From contig JBFFRY010000009.1 in NCBI GenBank assembly GCA_041572755.1, forward strand, positions 8,221 through 72,220: a stretch of 64,000 nt of DNA. Reading direction: 5' to 3'. Origin of the DNA: Acidimicrobiia bacterium. Its GTDB lineage: Bacteria > Actinomycetota > Acidimicrobiia > Spongiisociales > UBA11373. Position 1 is the stretch's first letter. Each line of letters starts with the position of its first letter. Position numbers and translations under genes: made by a program. Shown one piece after another: positions 1-8,055 of the stretch. Below the pieces are notes generated by a model, which did not search any database, had not been told where the DNA came from, and worked only from the letters and a program-made list of their open reading frames with translations.

Positions 1-52
1 GCCGTCAGCGTGCCCCCGGCTCGTTGCGGTGAGGCCGACCGGGGCACGGTTG

Positions 53-601
53 TCAGTCTGGGCAGTCGGGATAGCGCAGCTCGTCGGGAGACGTCCAGTG
101 GAACCCACCCCCTGAGTACGAAGGCAGACTGGTGATCGTCACGACCAGCGGTTCGCCTTCGACTACCCGTACGAGCGTTTCGCATCCGAAGTGCATGGCC
201 CCCGACGGCACGAACGCCTCGATTGTGAATCGGTAGGTTCCCGGGTCGAATGTCACGACCTGATCGGCTTTCACGTCCCAATACCGGTCGTCGTGTTGGG
301 GGTGTATCACGTCGGACATCGAGAACGGGTCGGAATCGGCGGGCCCGATACGTGCTCCCCCGTACGCATCTTCCTGCCTCGCAGCGTCCAGGGGCAGTAC
401 CCAGGCATCGATGCCGAGACCTCCGAACCCTTCGAGGCCATCGAGGGAGACGGTGATCGTTTGAGGTACGAGTGCGGTTGCAGAGTCATCGCCGCCTCGG
501 CATGCGACGGCGCTCATCACCAGAGCAGCCACGAGGGCTGGCGGCAACACCCGCGCTGAGAGGCGGCGCTGCCGGGCTGATGGTCGATGGGGGCTCTTCA
601 A
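53..601 (-). CDS. hypothetical lipoprotein (start uncertain)
   Basis: ORF with a hydrophobic stretch ending in lipobox-like SAVAC; no recognisable family. Confidence 0.55.
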   Translation of the reverse strand: MKSPHRPSARQRRLSARVLPPALVAALVMSAVACRGGDDSATALVPQTITVSLDGLEGFGGLGIDAWVLPLDAARQEDAYGGARIGPADSDPFSMSDVIHPQHDDRYWDVKADQVVTFDPGTYRFTIEAFVPSGAMHFGCETLVRVVEGEPLVVTITSLPSYSGGGFHWTSPDELRYPDCPD

Positions 602-707
602 GGAGGAACCCTTCGCTCTCTGCCAGCCTCATCCTTTCGACGAGGCGGCTGCAAGAGCCAAACGGCCTATTCGGAACTCTGGCTCCCTTCGGGGAGCTCG
701 CCTCGAC

Positions 708-1859
708 CTACTCGAACTCGACGAGTTCACTCGGGAGCAAGGAGACCCAGAGCCTGCCGGAAGGCACGGTGGCGGCATCGCCGAGCATATCGAAGAACCG
801 GAACGGCTCTCGCTCGCTGTCACGTTCCCAGGTGCCCTCCCAGCCATCCCCCTTCGCGAAGACCCAGGCCCGCCCCGACCCGACCGTGTCGATAGCCGGC
901 ACAGGGGTCCGGGACCCCGTTGCGTTCGCCGGGGCGTGGGCGATGTAGAAGCGCCCGGAAATCACGATGAGCACCTCGGCGTCGATCCTGCCCCGCTCCC
1001 CCTCCTCGTCCAACCACTCCTGATAGTCACCGCGCACCCATCGTTCGTATGTCTGCGTATCCGAGTTGTAGCGCCACTCGACGTCGTCGATTCCCTGTCC
1101 CCAGGTGAGGGTGACATTGTGCGCGGGATGCTGCGGGAGCGGCGGATCCCCGAAAGGCAGCCACGGAGTCGGGGCCTCGTCGGGGAATCCCCGTTCGTCG
1201 GCGAACTCACGGAAGTCGAATGTCGAGCCGTAGACGTTGTTGGGCAGGTCGCGCTCAGGGATCCGGTACATGATCGAGGGGTAGAACGTCACTCGGGGAA
1301 TACCGCGTTGGATGGCCATACCTGTGATCCACGGTTGGGCGCCGCTGTTCACCATGGTGCCGTTGACCGCGGTAGCGATTTGCAGATCTCCAGGTCGCAG
1401 GGATCGGATGGGACCGAGGTACTCGGCATCCGAGTAGTGAAACATGGCGATGAAACGGGTTGTGCCGTACACCACCTCGAGCTCGACCATCGCGTCTGCG
1501 AGTTGGATACCGGACTGTGGCTGGGCGGCCATTTCGTTGTCGATCTTGACCATGAGCACTCGGCGATCGAGCAGCTCCTGGTCGTAGACGGGCAGGCCGT
1601 TGACGCCGGAGTAGCCCACCGGAGGAATAGTCGTCGTCGTGGTGGTGGTCGTCGTGGTGGTGGTCGTCGTGGTGGTGGTGGTCGTTGTCGTGGTGGTGGT
1701 GGTCGTGACCCTCGCAGCGGTCTTGGCCATCGTCGACATGGTGGTGGTGGCAGTGCCCGCAGATGAGCAGGCTACGACGGTCAGGGCGAGGGCAACCGGG
1801 AGCAGGACACGTCCCCCCGGCGTTATGGAACTCGCAGGTCGATCGACGAGTGCGGACAT
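708..1859 (-). CDS. DUF3048 (YerB-like) lipoprotein with poly-Thr linker
   Basis: Motifs VKIDN, QPQSGIQLAD, TRFIAMF, GPIRSLR typical of DUF3048; lipobox VVAC; start moved to ATG at 1859. Confidence 0.8.
   Translation of the reverse strand: MSALVDRPASSITPGGRVLLPVALALTVVACSSAGTATTTMSTMAKTAARVTTTTTTTTTTTTTTTTTTTTTTTTTTIPPVGYSGVNGLPVYDQELLDRRVLMVKIDNEMAAQPQSGIQLADAMVELEVVYGTTRFIAMFHYSDAEYLGPIRSLRPGDLQIATAVNGTMVNSGAQPWITGMAIQRGIPRVTFYPSIMYRIPERDLPNNVYGSTFDFREFADERGFPDEAPTPWLPFGDPPLPQHPAHNVTLTWGQGIDDVEWRYNSDTQTYERWVRGDYQEWLDEEGERGRIDAEVLIVISGRFYIAHAPANATGSRTPVPAIDTVGSGRAWVFAKGDGWEGTWERDSEREPFRFFDMLGDAATVPSGRLWVSLLPSELVEFE
1629..1706 (-). repeat. ACC/ACG trinucleotide repeat encoding 26 consecutive Thr
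   Basis: Counted codon by codon in the DUF3048 frame. Confidence 0.9.
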
Positions 1860-1981
1860 GTTGGGAAGACTAGAGACCGACGCTTGCGGCCTCCGACCCG
1901 TGTCAGGAGTCGGCCGGGCGGTGCGCACATGAGCCGCGCCACCCCGATGCGCCTGCGCCTTGCGCCTGGGTCATGAATCGC

Positions 1982-2215
1982 TCATCGGGGCCGACGCAAC
2001 ATCCGGCGGATGTGTCGTCGGCCGTGCCACCCAACAACCATCACCGCCACAACGGCGGCCAGGATCCAGAACAATCGAACCCGTCCGAGTTCGTCGAGGT
2101 AGAGATAGCCGGCTACCAGCGTCACGGCGAGCGCTAGAACCTCGAACACCCTCCGACCGATCCTTGTCACGACGACCTCCGGTCTGATCAGATCCTCAGC
2201 GTACGGGGGTGCCAA
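1982..2215 (-). CDS. small hypothetical membrane protein (2 TM)
   Basis: 77 aa, two hydrophobic segments and a basic C-tail; start uncertain. Confidence 0.45.
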   Translation of the reverse strand: MAPPYAEDLIRPEVVVTRIGRRVFEVLALAVTLVAGYLYLDELGRVRLFWILAAVVAVMVVGWHGRRHIRRMLRRPR

Positions 2216-2246
2216 TTGGTCTACTGATCCCGCGCCACCCCAGGGC

Positions 2247-2268
2247 GATCCGGCTCTTGCGCCGGATC
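2247..2268. terminator. 8-bp hairpin, possible terminator
   Basis: GATCCGGC-TCTTGC-GCCGGATC downstream of the Lys-rich sORF; no U-tract. Confidence 0.4.
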
Positions 2269-2308
2269 ACGTCGCCTGAAGCACTTGGCTGGTGAGTGGT
2301 CAACGGAG

Positions 2309-2434
2309 TTAGGCGATTCCGCTGAGCTTTCCGCGGTCTGCGTCCTTCTTCGTCTTCTTGTCGAGCCGTTTCTGCTTCAGGTCTCGGGTGGCCGTCTTCT
2401 TGACGTTCTTGCCACCCTTGTTCTTGGTTCCCAT
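2309..2434 (-). CDS. 41-aa Lys-rich microprotein (not in ORF track)
   Basis: MGTKNKGGKNVKKTATRDLKQKRLDKKTKKDADRGKLSGIA; SD GGAGAG upstream; 34/41 codons end in G/C. Confidence 0.7.
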   Translation of the reverse strand: MGTKNKGGKNVKKTATRDLKQKRLDKKTKKDADRGKLSGIA

Positions 2435-2503
2435 GAGTCTCTCCAGACCGGCCGATGATGCGGCCATGCTGTTGTGTCTCTCGCCCTCACGAGCGCTGGG
2501 TGT

Positions 2504-2731
2504 TCAACCGGCTTCGATGATCGCTACGAGCCGCGTGGTGTGGATCGCAGTCGTGCCACGCAGATGCCGGAGGAGGATCGCCGTTTCACCGTACGTGGTC
2601 TCGGTGCCGAGGTATTCCCCGGACACGGACTGGCCGGTCGAAGTTCTGGCGTGGTAGCTGTGTCCTCGCTGGAGTCGATTGATCATCTGTGTGATCGATT
2701 CTTGCTTCCGCTGGCTATGGGCTTTCTGCAT
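2504..2731 (-). CDS. 75-aa hypothetical protein, possible Sm/Hfq-like beta-barrel
   Basis: SD AAGGAG before ATG 2731 (MQKAHSQRKQ...); fold call is speculative. Confidence 0.65.
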   Translation of the reverse strand: MQKAHSQRKQESITQMINRLQRGHSYHARTSTGQSVSGEYLGTETTYGETAILLRHLRGTTAIHTTRLVAIIEAG

Positions 2732-2808
2732 GTTCTCCTTGGTGGCTTGCTCCCGTGGTGTCCGGGGGGTGTCGCATGTGCGCCGGCTGGCGACCATCTC
2801 GGGGCGAC

Positions 2809-2949
2809 CTACTTGCGGGGCGCCCGCGGGGCGTACTGGCGGCAAGCGCACTTGGGCACCGTGCACTCATCGGTGCGGTGCTCGCTATTGGGGTGGCCGC
2901 AATCGACGCAGCGCTGCCTGCCGGGATCGGTCGTCCGGGTGCCCTTCAT
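2809..2949 (-). CDS. 46-aa Cys/His-rich zinc-finger-like microprotein (not in ORF track)
   Basis: MKGTRTTDPGRQRCVDCGHPNSEHRTDECTVPKCACRQYAPRAPRK; motif Cx2CxHx4Hx4Cx4CxC; 41/46 codons end in G/C; weak SD GAGAG. Confidence 0.7.
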   Translation of the reverse strand: MKGTRTTDPGRQRCVDCGHPNSEHRTDECTVPKCACRQYAPRAPRK

Positions 2950-3084
2950 GGGGCACTCTCATGCCCGAGAGGCTGCTGTGTCGGGGCGATTGTTCCGATT
3001 GCGGGGCCGTCCATAGTGGGGCTCCCTTCGAAAACTCGTGATTGCTCGACGATGACGTGTCCTGGGTCGTCGAGTGATTCTGTG

Positions 3085-3112
3085 GGGGCCGGGGATCGCG
3101 TTCCCCGGCCCC
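3085..3112 (-). terminator. 11-bp GC hairpin after the RRM gene
   Basis: GGGGCCGGGGA-TCGCGT-TCCCCGGCCCC, 17 nt after the stop; no U-tract. Confidence 0.6.
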
Positions 3113-3128
3113 GGGTGAACGAACGGTC

Positions 3129-3383
3129 CTACCGGGACCGCTCGCGGGCCAGGTTCACGTTGAGCTGGCGACCATCGACGGTCGAACCGTTGACCTCCGC
3201 GATTGCCTTCTGGGCATCTTCCGCGGAAGCCATCTCGACAAAACCGAAACCGCGTGAGCGGCCGGTGTCGCGATCTGCGATGACCTGAGCGTTGGTCACT
3301 TCGCCAAAGCCGGCGAAGAGATCCTTCAACGCAGCCGAGTCGGTCGAGAACGCAAGGTTCCCGACATAGATGTTGGTGGACAT
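3129..3383 (-). CDS. RNA recognition motif (RRM) RNA-binding protein
   Basis: RNP2 IYVGNL and RNP1 RGFGFVEM; SD AAGGAG before ATG 3383. Confidence 0.93.
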   Translation of the reverse strand: MSTNIYVGNLAFSTDSAALKDLFAGFGEVTNAQVIADRDTGRSRGFGFVEMASAEDAQKAIAEVNGSTVDGRQLNVNLARERSR

Positions 3384-3531
3384 GGATTGGCTCCTTCTGA
3401 GCATTGAACCGTCGGAACTGGACGCCCCACAAAGAGGATCACCGGCTCTAGGGCCGACTGGGATGCCGACTGAAGGCCGTGAGTCTTGCGGCGACTTCAC
3501 TCGACGGAACAGAAGAAGCAAAGACAGGCGC

Positions 3532-3551
3532 CGCACGCCTATCGGCGTGCG
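3532..3551 (-). promoter_or_regulatory. hairpin upstream of the RRM gene (terminator or leader element)
   Basis: CGCACGCC-TATC-GGCGTGCG, followed on the minus strand by a pyrimidine-rich tract. Confidence 0.35.
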
Positions 3552-3782
3552 CAGGCACCACAATAGCCCATCTGCTCTTCAATGTGGCGAACTGAGCCAA
3601 TTGCTGGGTCGTCTGCGTTCCAGCCGCCGACGGCGGAACTGGCGACCACGCTGCCATATCCGGGACCGTCGCCGCTGTTCCAGCATCCAGTCGAGCAAGC
3701 CGGGCTCGACGATCGACAGCAGGATCCCGCCGTGGAAGAGCCAGGCGGGGACACCTGACTTGTGTTGGCCGCTCCCGCTGAG

Positions 3783-3950
3783 TCAGGTCGTCTTGATCAA
3801 GGCCTCGACCTGCTCATCGGTGATCTCCAGATCGGGATGAGCGGTCTCGGCGTGAATCGCGGCGTGCTTCAGCAGTTCTTCCTTCGTCTCAGTCGTGAAC
3901 GAACCGGGACAATCGGCACCGGTATCAGCACAGACGATCGAGTATGCCAT
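3783..3950 (-). CDS. DUF1059 small metal-binding protein
   Basis: MAYSIVCADTGADCPGSF...EELLKHAAIHAETAHP; C-x6-C plus H-x3-H-x4-H pattern of DUF1059. Confidence 0.8.
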   Translation of the reverse strand: MAYSIVCADTGADCPGSFTTETKEELLKHAAIHAETAHPDLEITDEQVEALIKTT

Positions 3951-4019
3951 GGCACCCCCTCGGTTGGTAACGCCATTCCCAAGCATATCGCCCGGGAGTG
4001 CCCGGCGGGGTGACACCTG

Positions 4020-4472
4020 CTACCTCAAGGCGCGGACCTCTCTGGTGAGGGTCTCGGGGACCGCGCGCCGCTTCATCAGTTTCATCGGGAACGAGGTCCA
4101 GTAGTTCTCGGCGTCCTCGATCGTGTCCCACTCATAGACGCCCCTGAACGCCCCCGACTCTCGACCCAACAACCAGGTCTTGGAACGGAAGCCGGGCTGT
4201 GCAGCGATCAAAGGCATGGGTATGCGGGAGAGACGCTTGTTCGCTGCAGCCGAGAACCTGGCGAAATGGAAGCCCACTGCAAACTGAGCACCCGGTCCAC
4301 CAGGCCGAGTCTCGGTCGGGGCCACCACCATCTCCCGGAACACCTCATAGTCCTCCCCGGGTCCGGGCACCAGATCACCGACCGCATCGCGGGGGAACTT
4401 GACCCGGCCACGCAACCGGAGCCATGTGGCGCGAGCGAGCAACACCGGCGGGAACTGGCCGAAACGGGGCAT
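4020..4472 (-). CDS. YdhR-like putative monooxygenase (dimeric alpha/beta barrel)
   Basis: PGFRSKTWL...FRGVYEWDTIEDAENY motif; SD GGAG. Confidence 0.6.
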   Translation of the reverse strand: MPRFGQFPPVLLARATWLRLRGRVKFPRDAVGDLVPGPGEDYEVFREMVVAPTETRPGGPGAQFAVGFHFARFSAAANKRLSRIPMPLIAAQPGFRSKTWLLGRESGAFRGVYEWDTIEDAENYWTSFPMKLMKRRAVPETLTREVRALR

Positions 4473-4738
4473 GTCGGCTCCTCAGCGATTGGGCTTCTTG
4501 GGATGTCGGGCCCGAAGGGGCCGGCGGTCAGCTTCCAGGATGCCGCGCCCGCAAGGCGCGTGGTAGGGGCGAAGGACTGAATCGGAGAGCGACACACCAC
4601 TCAAGGGGCGCGATGGACGGGTGGATAGCCGGCTCGGGTGACCTTTCGCCGCACCAGCTTCGGGGGCGATGGCCGTTGAGGCCACCCGGGGCGCTCAACG
4701 AAGCATTCCCCTTCCGAGCGTCGCGGTCGGATACCTTC

Positions 4739-5152
4739 TCAGGGTTCCTCTGGGGCAATGAGGGCGCCAACGGCGGCGGCGAGGCGGTGCATCTCCTCGT
4801 ACGCCTCTTCGAATCCCGAGTAGTCACCGCGGTGGATGGGGCATTCGAAGAAGACGGTCTCGGCGAACTCCAGGTAGTTGAGCGCCGCGTCCTCGATGTG
4901 TTGGCTCGGTGCGTTCTCCATGTCCACCACCGCAGTTCGGAGGTTGCCGAGAGCCCCGTCGCAGATCACCCGAAGGCTGTCGGGATCAGCAGAGACGAGC
5001 ACTTCCAACGGGGGTATCTCATCGAGGAGCGCCTGCCAGTCGTCGCGCCACTGATCGGTGGAGAGCTGCGAAGAGGTGCAGCCCGCGAGCAGCATGGCGA
5101 CCACTGAACAGATCGTCACCAACTGACTCTTCTGGGGTGTTGCTCTCGTCAT
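4739..5152 (-). CDS. hypothetical lipoprotein
   Basis: Lipobox LLAGC; start moved to ATG 5152. Confidence 0.6.
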   Translation of the reverse strand: MTRATPQKSQLVTICSVVAMLLAGCTSSQLSTDQWRDDWQALLDEIPPLEVLVSADPDSLRVICDGALGNLRTAVVDMENAPSQHIEDAALNYLEFAETVFFECPIHRGDYSGFEEAYEEMHRLAAAVGALIAPEEP

Positions 5153-5254
5153 GGTGTCAGTCTCCCCGGGTTGCTCGGTGTTCATGGGACTGGGTATGGG
5201 CGGCGTCGACTGGGGAAGCCCGGCCGGGCACATACGTCGATCGGCTGAATGAAC

Positions 5255-6703
5255 TCACCTGCGCCAAGCCTCTCTGTTGAAGAGGATCACGATCGGTACG
5301 ATCTCGAGCCGTCCGATGATCATCAGCATCGACAGAATCCACTTTCCGGCGATGGGCACATCCAGGTAGGTCTCGGTTGGTCCGATGGCCTCGAGCCCCG
5401 GTCCGATGTTGCCCAGGGATGACGCCACGGCGGACACGGTGGAGGGGAAGCTCACCTCGATGGGCCCAAACGATTGCACGATGCCGAGCCCGATCGTCCC
5501 GAACACGAATGCCGCCACGTAGAGCAGGATGAATGTGCGGACCGATTCCACGACGGGCCCTCGGATTGGAGTTCTATTCCACCTGGCGACGATGACGGTT
5601 CGTCTGTGCAGCAAGCGCTTCAGGTAGGCCCGCATTGCCCCATACATCACCTCCAGGCGGTAGACCTTGATGGATCCCGAGGTTGACCCGGACATGGCGC
5701 CGATGAACATCAGGACCACGATGAGTATCTGGAGGGGGGCGGCCCATTGGCCGAAGTCGGCGGTGGCGAACCCCGTCGTCGTCAAGATCGACGTCGCCGT
5801 GAACACCCCGTTGCGGATGGTGTCGTGAACGGACGAGCCCCAGGTCCCCACGGCAAGGAACGCCGACGCCGCCAGGACGATGAACAGGTACGCCCTGAAC
5901 TCGGCACTCCGCGCGTACTTGACCGGGTTGCGCAGCCCCTGATAGTGCAGGGCGAAGGATGTTCCTCCGATCAACATGAAGGCAACCACGACCCACTGCG
6001 CATACGCCGAGAATGCTCCGAGTGATCCCGCCTCGGTGCTGAAGCCGCCGCCCGACAGGGTGGTGAGGGAGTGGGTGATGGCTTCGAACAGCGTCATGTC
6101 GGCAGCGGCGAGAAGAGCAACCTCTGCTGCCGTGAAGCCCACGAAGATGAGCCAGAACCGCCTTGCCGTCTCTTGGAATCGGGGCACGATCCGCTCAGCG
6201 GTTGGGCCGGGCAATTCGGCGCTCGCCAGCTTCTGTGCGCCCAGGCCCAGCAGCGGCAGCAAGGCGATGGCCAAGACGACCATCCCCATCCCCCCGATCC
6301 ACTGAGTCAACGCCCGCCACATCAGCACCCCGTGGCTGAGGGCGCCCGGACTCTCGACAACAGACGCACCCGTCGCAGTGAACCCCGACGCCGACTCGAA
6401 GAGCGCGTCGGTCACGTTGCCGAGCGACCCGGTGACCAGGTAGGGCAAGGCCCCGAAGGCTGCAGATCCAAGCCATGCCAGACCCACCGCTGCGAATGCT
6501 TCCCTCGTCGAAAGCTCTGCCGGGGTGCCGAAGGCTCTCCGTATCACAAGGCCCGCAGCGATCGTGGTCAGCGAACCCAGCAGCAGCGGCAGGACTTCCG
6601 ACCACTCCCGATAGATGATGGCCACCCCGACGGGGACCGCCATCGCCAGCCCGACGAGGCTCAGAACCGCACCGACGATGTGGAGGAGTCGTTGCCATGA
6701 CAT
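5255..6703 (-). CDS. trkH: TrkH-family potassium uptake membrane protein
   Basis: Four pore-loop Gly motifs (SGFTATG, TLSGGGF, TTTGF, LGNIGPG) and C-terminal GRLE. Confidence 0.93.
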   Translation of the reverse strand: MSWQRLLHIVGAVLSLVGLAMAVPVGVAIIYREWSEVLPLLLGSLTTIAAGLVIRRAFGTPAELSTREAFAAVGLAWLGSAAFGALPYLVTGSLGNVTDALFESASGFTATGASVVESPGALSHGVLMWRALTQWIGGMGMVVLAIALLPLLGLGAQKLASAELPGPTAERIVPRFQETARRFWLIFVGFTAAEVALLAAADMTLFEAITHSLTTLSGGGFSTEAGSLGAFSAYAQWVVVAFMLIGGTSFALHYQGLRNPVKYARSAEFRAYLFIVLAASAFLAVGTWGSSVHDTIRNGVFTATSILTTTGFATADFGQWAAPLQILIVVLMFIGAMSGSTSGSIKVYRLEVMYGAMRAYLKRLLHRRTVIVARWNRTPIRGPVVESVRTFILLYVAAFVFGTIGLGIVQSFGPIEVSFPSTVSAVASSLGNIGPGLEAIGPTETYLDVPIAGKWILSMLMIIGRLEIVPIVILFNREAWRR

Positions 6704-6780
6704 CAGAAGCCTCCCCCTGCGTCGGCAGGGTGTGCCCGTTGGGGGGGCATCGTCATGGGCCGTGTCGTCACTCGAACCAG

Positions 6781-7359
6781 CTAGTTCCTCGAGAGCCCCA
6801 ATCCATGGGGGAAGAGAACCGGTTCGTATGCTCTCGTCACGGCGGCGCGGGCCCGCTTCGACAGTCGGACGTGAGCCGGTGGGCTCGCGTTGAGGCGCAA
6901 CACCTGATTCCGGGTGGCTGCATCATCGATCACATCTGCTTCCCACAATCCCTGGACGGCGGCATTGGGCATCACGGCGGTGATCCAGACCTTGAACGGC
7001 TCACTGGTGGGCTTTTCCGATCTCCGGGGATCAATCAGAAGCTCGTACTCCCAGAGGCCCGTGTCGGGCTTCTTGCGGGCGTCGCTGCACAGAAGCCGAC
7101 CGGTCGAACCGATCAGCCGATTAGCGCTCAACCGACCGTCGACCTCTTCCAGGACGGCGCACATGGCCCCGCGTGGGAACACTTCGTCGAGCATCCGTTG
7201 GAAGGCGCAACGTGCGTGGTACCGGGCGTCCTCTCGATCCTGCATGATGAACCTCGCGAACCGGGAGATCGCCGGAATCCCCCACCCCGGCGCGGAGGAA
7301 CGCATGTGTGCCGCGGGGGGAGAGATCGCTACGCCGCCGAACCACAACTGCCTGGTCAA
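6781..7359 (-). CDS. hypothetical protein (start uncertain, perhaps ATG of MQDRED)
   Basis: Balanced composition and G/C-ending codons in this frame; no family recognised. Confidence 0.5.
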   Translation of the reverse strand: MTRQLWFGGVAISPPAAHMRSSAPGWGIPAISRFARFIMQDREDARYHARCAFQRMLDEVFPRGAMCAVLEEVDGRLSANRLIGSTGRLLCSDARKKPDTGLWEYELLIDPRRSEKPTSEPFKVWITAVMPNAAVQGLWEADVIDDAATRNQVLRLNASPPAHVRLSKRARAAVTRAYEPVLFPHGLGLSRN

Positions 7360-7593
7360 CCGACGAGAGGAGGCGCTTTGGTGCGGGGCAACGCATCGTG
7401 ATGATCATGGCGATCACCCTCGATAACAGAAGCCATCAGCCCAAGTCGGGCGGTTGTAGGCGGGCCCCATCGCCTCTGCGACCCATGATACAGCCGCGTC
7501 AGAACCACTCAGCACGCATCACGGTTCGTGTCACCCTGATCGAAGGGGGCGTAGGCTTTCCGTCTGGGAGGGGGTGTTGGGGAAGAAGACCCC

Positions 7594-8055
7594 ATGAGAC
7601 GTTCCCTAGTCCTCCTCGCCGTTGTCCTGCTCCCGGTCGCTTCCTGTGGGGATGGCGAGCCGGATGGTGGGGTGGAGAGACCCACAAAGGCCGAGTGGAT
7701 CACCGCTGCAGATGCACTCTGCAGAGGGATGTTCGAGGAACTGGACCAGATCCCCGAGCCGCAGACACTCGAAGAGAGCCACGAGCTGGGCGGGCGAACC
7801 ATCGAGATCCAGCGGGCATCGCTCGCAGCGTTGCGGGCACTCACTCCCCCCGAGGGCGACGAGGGCACCATCGCAGAGATCCTCGATGCCCACGAGGCGC
7901 TCATCGACTGGGGTGAGGAGATGATCGAGTCCCTGGCGACCGAGGACCAAGAGAGGGCCTTCGAGCTCCATGTGGATGCCGAGCGGCTCGTCGAGGAGGC
8001 CGATCGGCTCACCGAGGACTACGGCCTTCGAGAGTGCCTCGGGTCCGACGATTGA
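7594..8055 (+). CDS. hypothetical helical lipoprotein
   Basis: Lipobox VASC; TKAEWITAADALC motif and a C-terminal Cys. Confidence 0.7.
   Translation: MRRSLVLLAVVLLPVASCGDGEPDGGVERPTKAEWITAADALCRGMFEELDQIPEPQTLEESHELGGRTIEIQRASLAALRALTPPEGDEGTIAEILDAHEALIDWGEEMIESLATEDQERAFELHVDAERLVEEADRLTEDYGLRECLGSDD

Follow-up and report, generated by a model that had tools for sequence, protein, structure and literature searches.

Do five short genes that follow one another on the same strand of a bacterial genome belong together, or have they come to lie side by side by chance? The question is raised by positions 1982-3561, minus strand, of a window of 64,000 nucleotides (nt; the whole stretch of DNA under study, contig JBFFRY010000009.1, positions 8,221 to 72,220, on C9 in our numbering of contigs) from an Acidimicrobiia bacterium (assembly GCA_041572755.1), whose genome comprises 2.47 Mb in 70 contigs and is referred to below as the host genome. 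At this locus a gene for a single-domain RRM protein of 84 amino acids (aa; RRM84) is preceded by a structured leader and followed by genes for a 46-aa Cys/His microprotein (ZF46), a 75-aa protein with a predicted Sm-like fold (P75), a 41-aa lysine-rich protein (K41) and a two-helix transmembrane (TM) protein. A sequence-only reading of the window had listed these five genes and had suggested that they might represent an undescribed RNA-chaperone or stress module. All five co-oriented open reading frames (ORFs) are present in the window, with two of the starts judged anew, that of P75 by the sequence-only reading itself and that of the TM gene in this study. In addition, homologues in related genomes and, for ZF46, coding-type substitutions bear out that the small ORFs are conserved protein-coding genes. 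The links of ZF46 and of P75 to RRM genes are real and non-random, and it is probable that the locus is an RRM-centred cluster of RNA-binding genes, controlled by the leader, with partner microproteins encoded downstream.

The evidence that carries this reading is the genomic neighbourhood of the two microprotein genes. In a pattern search of contigs with one genome per species, an RRM gene was located directly upstream of ZF46 on the same strand at 17 of 22 good ZF46 loci, and no other neighbour was conserved at these 22 loci. When 401 genomes were sampled evenly across the class, 63 ZF46 copies were found, and for at least 38 of these (36 of 53 genomes) an RRM gene precedes ZF46 on the same strand at a distance of no more than 400 nt, in 29 cases of no more than 80 nt; these counts are a lower bound, with 150 of 180 RRM matches taken in, and the chance expectation, derived from 3.4 RRM genes per genome of approximately 2.9 Mb, is about 0.015. 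P75 was found in 29 of the 401 genomes, representing 23 genera, and at least 17 of the 26 copies for which RRM coordinates were available are located behind an RRM-containing gene on the same strand. All three genes occur within approximately 5 kb of each other in G000 (twice), G001, L032, G324 (twice), G059, G209 and G327, and their order varies from RRM-ZF46-P75 to P75-RRM-ZF46, RRM-P75-ZF46-RRM and divergent pairs. Genes that remain neighbours through rearrangements are usually linked in function, and the maintenance of the trio in several orders thus points to such a linkage here. The association of ZF46 and of the Sm-like P75 with RRM genes is therefore far above chance, extends over many genera and is seen in several gene orders. 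Of the module that had been proposed, this tie to RRM genes stands, whereas the five genes do not form a fixed operon.

The locus comprises the following features, with coordinates given for the window:

3565..3560, minus strand: candidate -10 box TATTGT, just upstream of the leader, putative.
3384..3561, minus strand: structured 5' leader with a 5' hairpin, an anti-Shine-Dalgarno (anti-SD) stretch and predicted long-range helices, supported by covariation.
3129..3383, minus strand: RRM84, 84 aa, assigned by Pfam RRM_1 and NCBIfam NF058537.
3085..3112, minus strand: GC-rich hairpin, 17 nt past the RRM stop codon, from folding energy.
2946..3014, minus strand: upstream ORF of 22 codons, read from the sequence.
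2809..2949, minus strand: ZF46, 46-aa Cys5/His2 microprotein, supported by homologues and a codon test.
2504..2731, minus strand: P75, 75 aa, predicted Sm-like fold, start codon ATG at 2731, from the family alignment and an AlphaFold2 (AF2) model.
2309..2434, minus strand: K41, 41-aa Lys-rich protein, start codon ATG at 2434, from homologues and a comparison of starts.
1982..2170, minus strand: TM62, two-helix membrane microprotein, likely start codon GTG at 2170, from homologue lengths and the SD sequence.

Each of the downstream genes is preceded by its own SD sequence, and none of the four small proteins (ZF46, P75, K41 and the TM protein) matched a Pfam or NCBIfam family at E<=1.

In many genera the start codon of ZF46 overlaps the stop codon of the RRM gene as ATGA, GTGA or TTGA, and such a stop/start overlap is the classical arrangement for translational coupling. 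In the window, in a genome of the same genus (G001) and at a paralogous locus on contig C8 of the host genome, the RRM gene and ZF46 are 150-220 nt apart. In the window this space contains an ORF of 22 codons, MDGPAIGTIAPTQQPLGHESAP, with a strong SD sequence, GAAGGGAG, and its TGA stop codon overlaps the ATG of ZF46, again as ATGA. The same architecture was found in G001 (22 codons) and at the C8 locus (24 codons), where the encoded peptide is unrelated. Since the peptide differs between paralogues, the upstream ORF is more likely to serve in coupling than to encode a functional peptide. ZF46 would then be made by coupling to the RRM gene in the relatives and by coupling to the 22-codon ORF in the window.

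RRM84 itself is a clear member of a known family. It matches Pfam RRM_1 (PF00076) at 2e-24 and 85.7 bits, against a cut-off of 20.7, and the NCBIfam equivalog-domain model NF058537 ('Rbp_regulator') at 109.1 bits, against a cut-off of 100, and its single domain contains the RNP2 (IYVGNL) and RNP1 (RGFGFVEM) motifs. The host genome encodes three RRM84 paralogues with 87%, 86% and 62% identity and, in addition, a helicase-RRM fusion. A second RRM-ZF46-P75 locus is present on contig C8, and at an RRM locus on contig C13 a paralogue of the TM protein is encoded two genes downstream. The fourth small RRM gene, which encodes the 62% identical paralogue (C8:49810-50414, minus strand), is directly followed by a slightly overlapping gene for an IF-1-like protein with an S1 fold (Pfam eIF-1a, 1.2e-17). 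All four small RRM genes of the host genome thus have a small gene at most two genes downstream; the product of this small gene is a putative nucleic-acid-binding protein in three cases and, on C13, a two-helix TM microprotein. At three loci of other genomes (L049:3709-3966, plus strand; L034; L040) the RRM gene and ZF46 are separated by a gene for a charged helical protein of 77-85 aa that has no Pfam match; this protein may represent a further variable partner.

Recognition of bacterial RRM proteins as global post-transcriptional regulators is only recent. A cold-regulated rbp gene of Anabaena is co-transcribed with rpsU, a gene for a small basic protein. RRM84 resembles the bacterial single-domain RRM proteins, i.e. 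cyanobacterial Rbp, Bacteroides RRM-1 and the members of NF058537, in consisting of one small domain and in occurring with several paralogues per genome. The cyanobacterial and Bacteroides RRM genes, like that of RRM84, are found in genomes without detectable Hfq; a search of the host genome with the Pfam Hfq model gave no match. Unlike these systems, RRM84 has a coupled zinc-finger microprotein and an Sm-like neighbour, both without family assignment, for which we found no counterpart in a published RRM system, and its leader lacks an Rfam match. For the cyanobacterial and Bacteroides proteins, roles in cold adaptation and post-transcriptional control have been reported (PMC13370968, PMC12232666).

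Of 41 close relatives, 15 have a homologue of ZF46 as detected by tblastn and hidden Markov model (HMM) searches, and so have 53 of the 401 genomes sampled across the class; all carriers among the 401 belong to the order of the window (31 of 178 genera). An alignment of 32 sequences, with identities as low as 46%, has 13 invariant positions (R13, C14, C17, G18, H19, P20, E23, H24, C29, V31, P32, C34 and C36) and a nearly invariant Y39, and the N-terminus is basic. Nucleotide differences are found mostly at third codon positions, and the ratio of synonymous to non-synonymous differences is 0.62 in frame versus 0.09-0.11 in the shifted frames, in an alignment whose protein guidance somewhat favours the frame. 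None of the 32 members matched a Pfam or NCBIfam family. When 1.84 billion cluster representatives were searched exhaustively by HMM, only 78 ZF46 clusters were retrieved, mostly of 46-65 aa, and an indexed search of 5.8 billion proteins yielded only five ZF46 proteins, either unnamed or termed 'hypothetical'; by these numbers the family is essentially unannotated. The long entries among the 78 clusters, which had been considered as possible fusions with an RRM domain, are mis-called upstream extensions in Arg-rich frames. Two other longer proteins (P0064 and P0082) contain the Cys/His module twice in tandem, indicating that it behaves as an independent domain. RRM-ZF46 pairs are also located on two short contigs (L030, L038) of a metagenome-assembled genome labelled Gammaproteobacteria, and a K41-ZF46 pair on a contig labelled Gemmatimonadota (L035); these seem more likely to be mis-binned Acidimicrobiia contigs than cases of horizontal spread.

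The AF2 model of ZF46 is of moderate confidence (predicted local distance difference test, pLDDT, 78.9), and a sequence-profile search of the PDB gave matches at chance level only (E 0.16-0.8). With a single CxxC and no match in sequence or fold, ZF46 does not qualify as a rubredoxin or zinc ribbon. Neither is it a CCHC zinc knuckle as defined by PF00098, which matched none of the 32 members at E<=1. The core spacing of ZF46, C-x2-C-x6-H-x4-C, resembles that of the knuckle (C-x2-C-x4-H-x4-C) with an insertion of two residues, and it differs by three additional invariant ligands, H19, C34 and C36. The conserved Cys and His residues suggest that ZF46 binds zinc, and the invariant Arg before the first Cys together with the nearly invariant Tyr would fit a contact with nucleic acids. 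In eukaryotes, SRSF7 and the RZ-1 cold-response proteins of plants are examples of proteins in which a CCHC zinc knuckle accompanies an RRM. Both cases pair an RRM with a small Cys/His module containing basic and aromatic residues; unlike the eukaryotic proteins, the RRM protein and ZF46 are separate polypeptides whose translation would be coupled.

The third gene in the row, P75, has homologues of 70-81 aa, all of which start at an ATG located 5-8 nt after AAAGGAG (AAGGAGA in the window) and approximately 20 residues before a conserved LNHL motif. A form of 120 aa with a GTG start was rejected because its additional part is conserved only where it overlaps ZF46, so that the start as corrected by the sequence-only reading is the right one. 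The AF2 model (pLDDT 88.8, predicted TM-score 0.74) consists of a helix at residues 2-18 followed by five strands, and thus contains, as a prediction, the N-terminal helix and the five-stranded bent sheet of the Sm fold. In a Foldseek comparison with the PDB, the best match was XC5848, described as a 'novel variant of Sm-like motif' (TM-score 0.70), the second was YaeO, and the other top matches included Gemin6/7, many Hfq structures, archaeal SmAP and Lsm proteins; TM-scores were mostly 0.5-0.7 at a probability of about 1, with E-values from 5e-3 to 3e-2. The earlier suggestion that this protein might be Sm-like is thus supported by a confident model and by its closest structural relatives. 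At the sequence level neither P75 nor any of 14 family members matched any Pfam family at E<=1, Hfq (PF17209) and LSM included, and a proximal-face Sm2 motif of the YKHAI type was not seen in the family alignment. P75 is therefore like Hfq, Sm and Lsm proteins in the topology of its model, in size (approximately 70 aa) and in its RNA-related gene context, and it differs from Hfq and Lsm proteins in the lack of a sequence-profile match and of the Sm2 motif. By its predicted structure it represents a new family with an Sm-like fold and is not a member of Hfq. Another small actinobacterial protein, DUF3107, was proposed in 2015 on grounds of its fold to be Sm/Hfq-like and the actinobacterial Hfq (bioRxiv 10.1101/026195). 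P75 is not DUF3107 (PF11305), as no member of the P75 alignment matches this family and a separate DUF3107 gene is present on contig C16 of the host genome.

Many of the RRM domains encoded upstream of P75 are part of open frames of 500-650 aa. The one such gene that was inspected, in L027, encodes a DEAD domain, a Helicase_C domain and an RRM_1 domain, and P75 is located directly behind it. This DEAD-box helicase with a C-terminal RRM (L027:5512-7095, minus strand) was confirmed by Pfam. A DEAD-box helicase with a C-terminal RRM, as judged from the C-terminal sequence alone, is also encoded in the host genome (C21:46251-47987, minus strand), with no P75 gene behind it.

Upstream of the RRM gene lies a leader of approximately 178 nt, which is common to the three close RRM paralogues in the host genome and to RRM genes of other genera. 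A covariance model (R1) matched the leader at full length in 24 of the 41 relatives. Wherever the gene downstream of a match was checked, the leader ends at the start of an RRM gene or at a ZF46 gene lacking an RRM gene; in two genomes (L033; G014, contig C11) it stands directly before ZF46 with no RRM gene in front. Occurrence of this type of leader before other copies of K41, P75 or the TM gene was considered and rejected for the host genome, which contains three copies of the leader only, all of them before RRM genes. Within the leader the SD region, GAAGGAGC, is paired with an anti-SD stretch that is rich in pyrimidines, GCUUCUUCUG, and further long-range helices are predicted by RNAalifold. 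Across 42 sequences, 89% of the cells are paired and compensatory changes occur in 29 of 43 pairs, in an alignment (with loci including L017-L093) that was fitted to model R1 and hence somewhat favours structure. None of 500 shuffles reached the observed values, and slid controls gave 34-50%. Helix 2 of the leader (columns 48-55 with 240-247) is 84.9% paired, with four pairs changed on both sides.

A conserved and covarying helix between SD and anti-SD, the hallmark of leaders that sequester the SD sequence, is thus present. With RNA thermometers and autoregulated leaders such as that of cspA, the leader shares a covarying anti-SD of the CUUCUUC type opposite a GAAGGAG SD, and like cspA-type leaders it precedes the gene of an RNA-binding protein. 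Unlike the known leaders of this kind, it is about 178 nt long, contains multiple helices and belongs to no Rfam family: a cmscan search of window positions 1-8000 at E<=1 left it unmatched and retrieved only a fluoride riboswitch and a chance match to a miRNA. The leader is therefore a candidate for a new cis-regulatory RNA, possibly a thermosensor or an autoregulatory site, which would hide the ribosome-binding site and thereby gate translation of the RRM protein. A promoter scan called no sigma-70 promoter at the locus. The fluoride riboswitch (Rfam RF01734, window 7420-7483, minus strand, 49.3 bits, E 1.5e-11) is unrelated to the cluster.

The strong hairpin that the sequence-only reading had placed behind the RRM gene is confirmed, with an 11-bp GC stem and a folding energy of -29.7 kcal/mol (z = -3.57), and at four related loci a hairpin of different sequence is found at the same position. 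The stem is followed by CCACAGAAUCAC instead of a U tract and a terminator scan made no call, so that the hairpin does not qualify as an intrinsic (Rho-independent) terminator. It may still terminate transcription in a leaky or non-canonical manner, or else stabilise the 3' end.

Contigs from four true metatranscriptomes, which are sparse and unstranded and come from metagenomic samples, match four of the five genes without mismatch. Their matches fall on the RRM gene, its leader and its 3' region (3046-3514), on the upstream ORF and the intergenic space (2983-3118 and 2960-3112), on the ZF46 region (2830-2890 and 2921-3012), on P75 (2583-2733) and on the TM gene (2033-2233); K41 was covered by none of the contigs seen in these four data sets. 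Three of the contigs (3046-3514, 2983-3118 and 2960-3112) run across the hairpin, indicating that some molecules cross it. Two further runs labelled TRANSCRIPTOMIC (X19 and X20) were discarded as evidence of expression because their coverage of window positions 1-6000 is flat, approximately 6-7x over genes and spacers, and the same as in a DNA run; either DNA in the libraries or a wrong label is the probable cause.

The last two genes of the row are more loosely attached. K41, a Lys-rich protein with the sequence MGTKNKGGKNVKK...DLKQKRLDKK, is encoded in 20 of the 41 relatives, in a single copy each, and is listed in public databases as 'hypothetical protein' only. Its length of 41 aa, as given in the sequence-only reading, is correct; a form of 52 aa was rejected since the seemingly conserved 'GLEALM' upstream is a GGAG SD sequence read as protein and L062 has a stop codon seven codons upstream. 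K41 adjoins ZF46 in G010 and L035 and is located near P75 in G029; it is conserved but loosely linked to the other genes. The TM protein, whose two-helix topology was read from the sequence by eye, is found in three genera only, with homologues of 58-66 aa. Its proposed length of 77 aa, with a TTG start at 2215, does not hold up well, and a protein of 62 aa is probably correct, as the GTG at 2170 follows GGAGG and this length agrees with the homologues. The gene is located near an RRM gene in four of six occurrences; in G012 and G021 it directly follows the RRM gene or ZF46, and on host contig C13 it is the second gene past the RRM gene.

The row of microproteins continues just upstream of the RRM leader with a 55-aa DUF1059 protein (1.3e-11; window 3783-3950, minus strand). 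Downstream of the cluster, a 406-aa exported protein is encoded (708-1928, minus strand) with a run of 26 consecutive Thr residues near 1629-1706, on which RNA and DNA contigs of many organisms pile up.

Several observations weigh against the interpretation of the locus as one RRM-centred cluster. Apart from the window, the complete order RRM-ZF46-P75-K41 was seen in the same-genus genome G001 alone, and part of it at the paralogous locus of the host genome; K41 has no conserved neighbour in 12 loci, and the TM gene is located 8 kb away in G001, so that the five genes do not hold as one conserved unit. Many genomes contain the leader and the RRM gene and lack ZF46, which is thus not required for RRM function. 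An RRM-ZF46 fusion was sought among the 78 clusters and was not found, Foldseek with the ZF46 model gave no meaningful structural match (E about 8-9), the E-values of the P75 matches are modest, and an hhalign comparison of P75 with E. coli Hfq was not significant (probability 0.9%, E 0.06). Finally, the RNA contigs may in part stem from DNA carry-over and do not establish co-transcription. The restricted gene order and the unattached K41, together with the strong hairpin and the separate SD sequence of each downstream gene, would be expected if the row were a chance string of independent small genes without shared function, located downstream of an RRM gene with a terminator of its own. However, ZF46 and P75 adjoin RRM genes in several arrangements, in dozens of genomes that span different genera; the host genome contains the RRM-ZF46-P75 trio twice, the hairpin lacks a U tract and RNA contigs cross it. 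For ZF46 and P75 the synteny counts already refute a chance string, and for the row as a whole we consider it unlikely. It is very improbable that the small ORFs are not functional proteins at all, but conserved RNA elements or regulatory upstream and downstream ORFs of the RRM transcript. The near absence of ZF46 from annotation, with five proteins in the indexed search, and the non-conserved peptide of the 22-codon ORF, which appears to serve coupling only, agree with such a view; it is contradicted by the concentration of ZF46 differences at third codon positions, with an in-frame ratio 5-6 times that of the shifted frames, by the Cys/His pattern that is invariant down to 46% identity, by the conserved SD sequences and the confidently predicted fold of P75, and by the occurrence of ZF46 without an RRM gene.

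The main rival concerns the function of the two partners rather than their association. P75 might be a protein-binding regulator of the helicase or RRM domain, comparable to YaeO/Rof, a protein with an Sm-like fold that inhibits the Rho helicase, and ZF46 might modulate or titrate the RRM protein. YaeO is the second-best structural match of P75, P75 directly follows a verified gene for a DEAD-box helicase-RRM fusion, and the YKHAI-type motif of Hfq is missing; the tight coupling of ZF46 to the RRM gene is what would be expected of a stoichiometric binding partner. On the other hand, most of the structural matches are Hfq, Lsm and SmAP proteins, and the conserved basic and aromatic residues of both microproteins suit a contact with nucleic acids. 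We therefore regard regulation by protein binding as a serious but doubtful alternative, and prefer the interpretation as a leader-controlled cluster of RNA-binding proteins. Under this interpretation, ZF46 would most likely join the RRM protein in acting on RNA, the pair being a divided counterpart of the eukaryotic proteins that unite an RRM with a zinc knuckle, and P75 would most likely be an Hfq/Lsm-like adaptor that binds RNA or the RRM domain and elsewhere partners a helicase-RRM enzyme. K41 and the two-helix TM protein would be conserved small genes that joined the cluster in this genus and are tied less closely to the RRM system. Fold, residue composition and gene context suggest that the cluster proteins may bind RNA, form a complex and have a role in stress or cold. 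A wider proposal, which we put forward as speculative and rather doubtful, is that RRM84, ZF46 and the Sm-fold P75 form a mini-ribonucleoprotein, in some lineages together with an RRM-bearing DEAD-box helicase, that serves as the general RNA-chaperone and riboregulation system of the order; its synthesis would be gated by a leader sensing temperature or the RRM protein, and the two-helix TM protein might tether part of it to the membrane.

The resources searched contain no description of the ZF46 and P75 families, of the way these are coupled to RRM genes or of the leader motif; the kind of system, small RNA-binding proteins under a structured leader, is known. ZF46, P75 and the leader are absent from Pfam, NCBIfam or Rfam and have largely been missed by gene callers. 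The locus thus provides three candidates that can be expressed: an RRM-coupled zinc-finger microprotein, a family with a predicted Sm fold that is tied to RRM and DEAD-box helicase genes, and a covarying leader. To our knowledge, the Actinomycetota are the largest bacterial phylum without an accepted RNA chaperone of the Hfq type. The relevance of the cluster for the question of the missing chaperone in this phylum is tempered by its restriction to a single order that is largely uncultured. Should the proteins form a complex, they would represent a new type of bacterial RNA-binding machinery, in which microproteins extend a minimal RRM.

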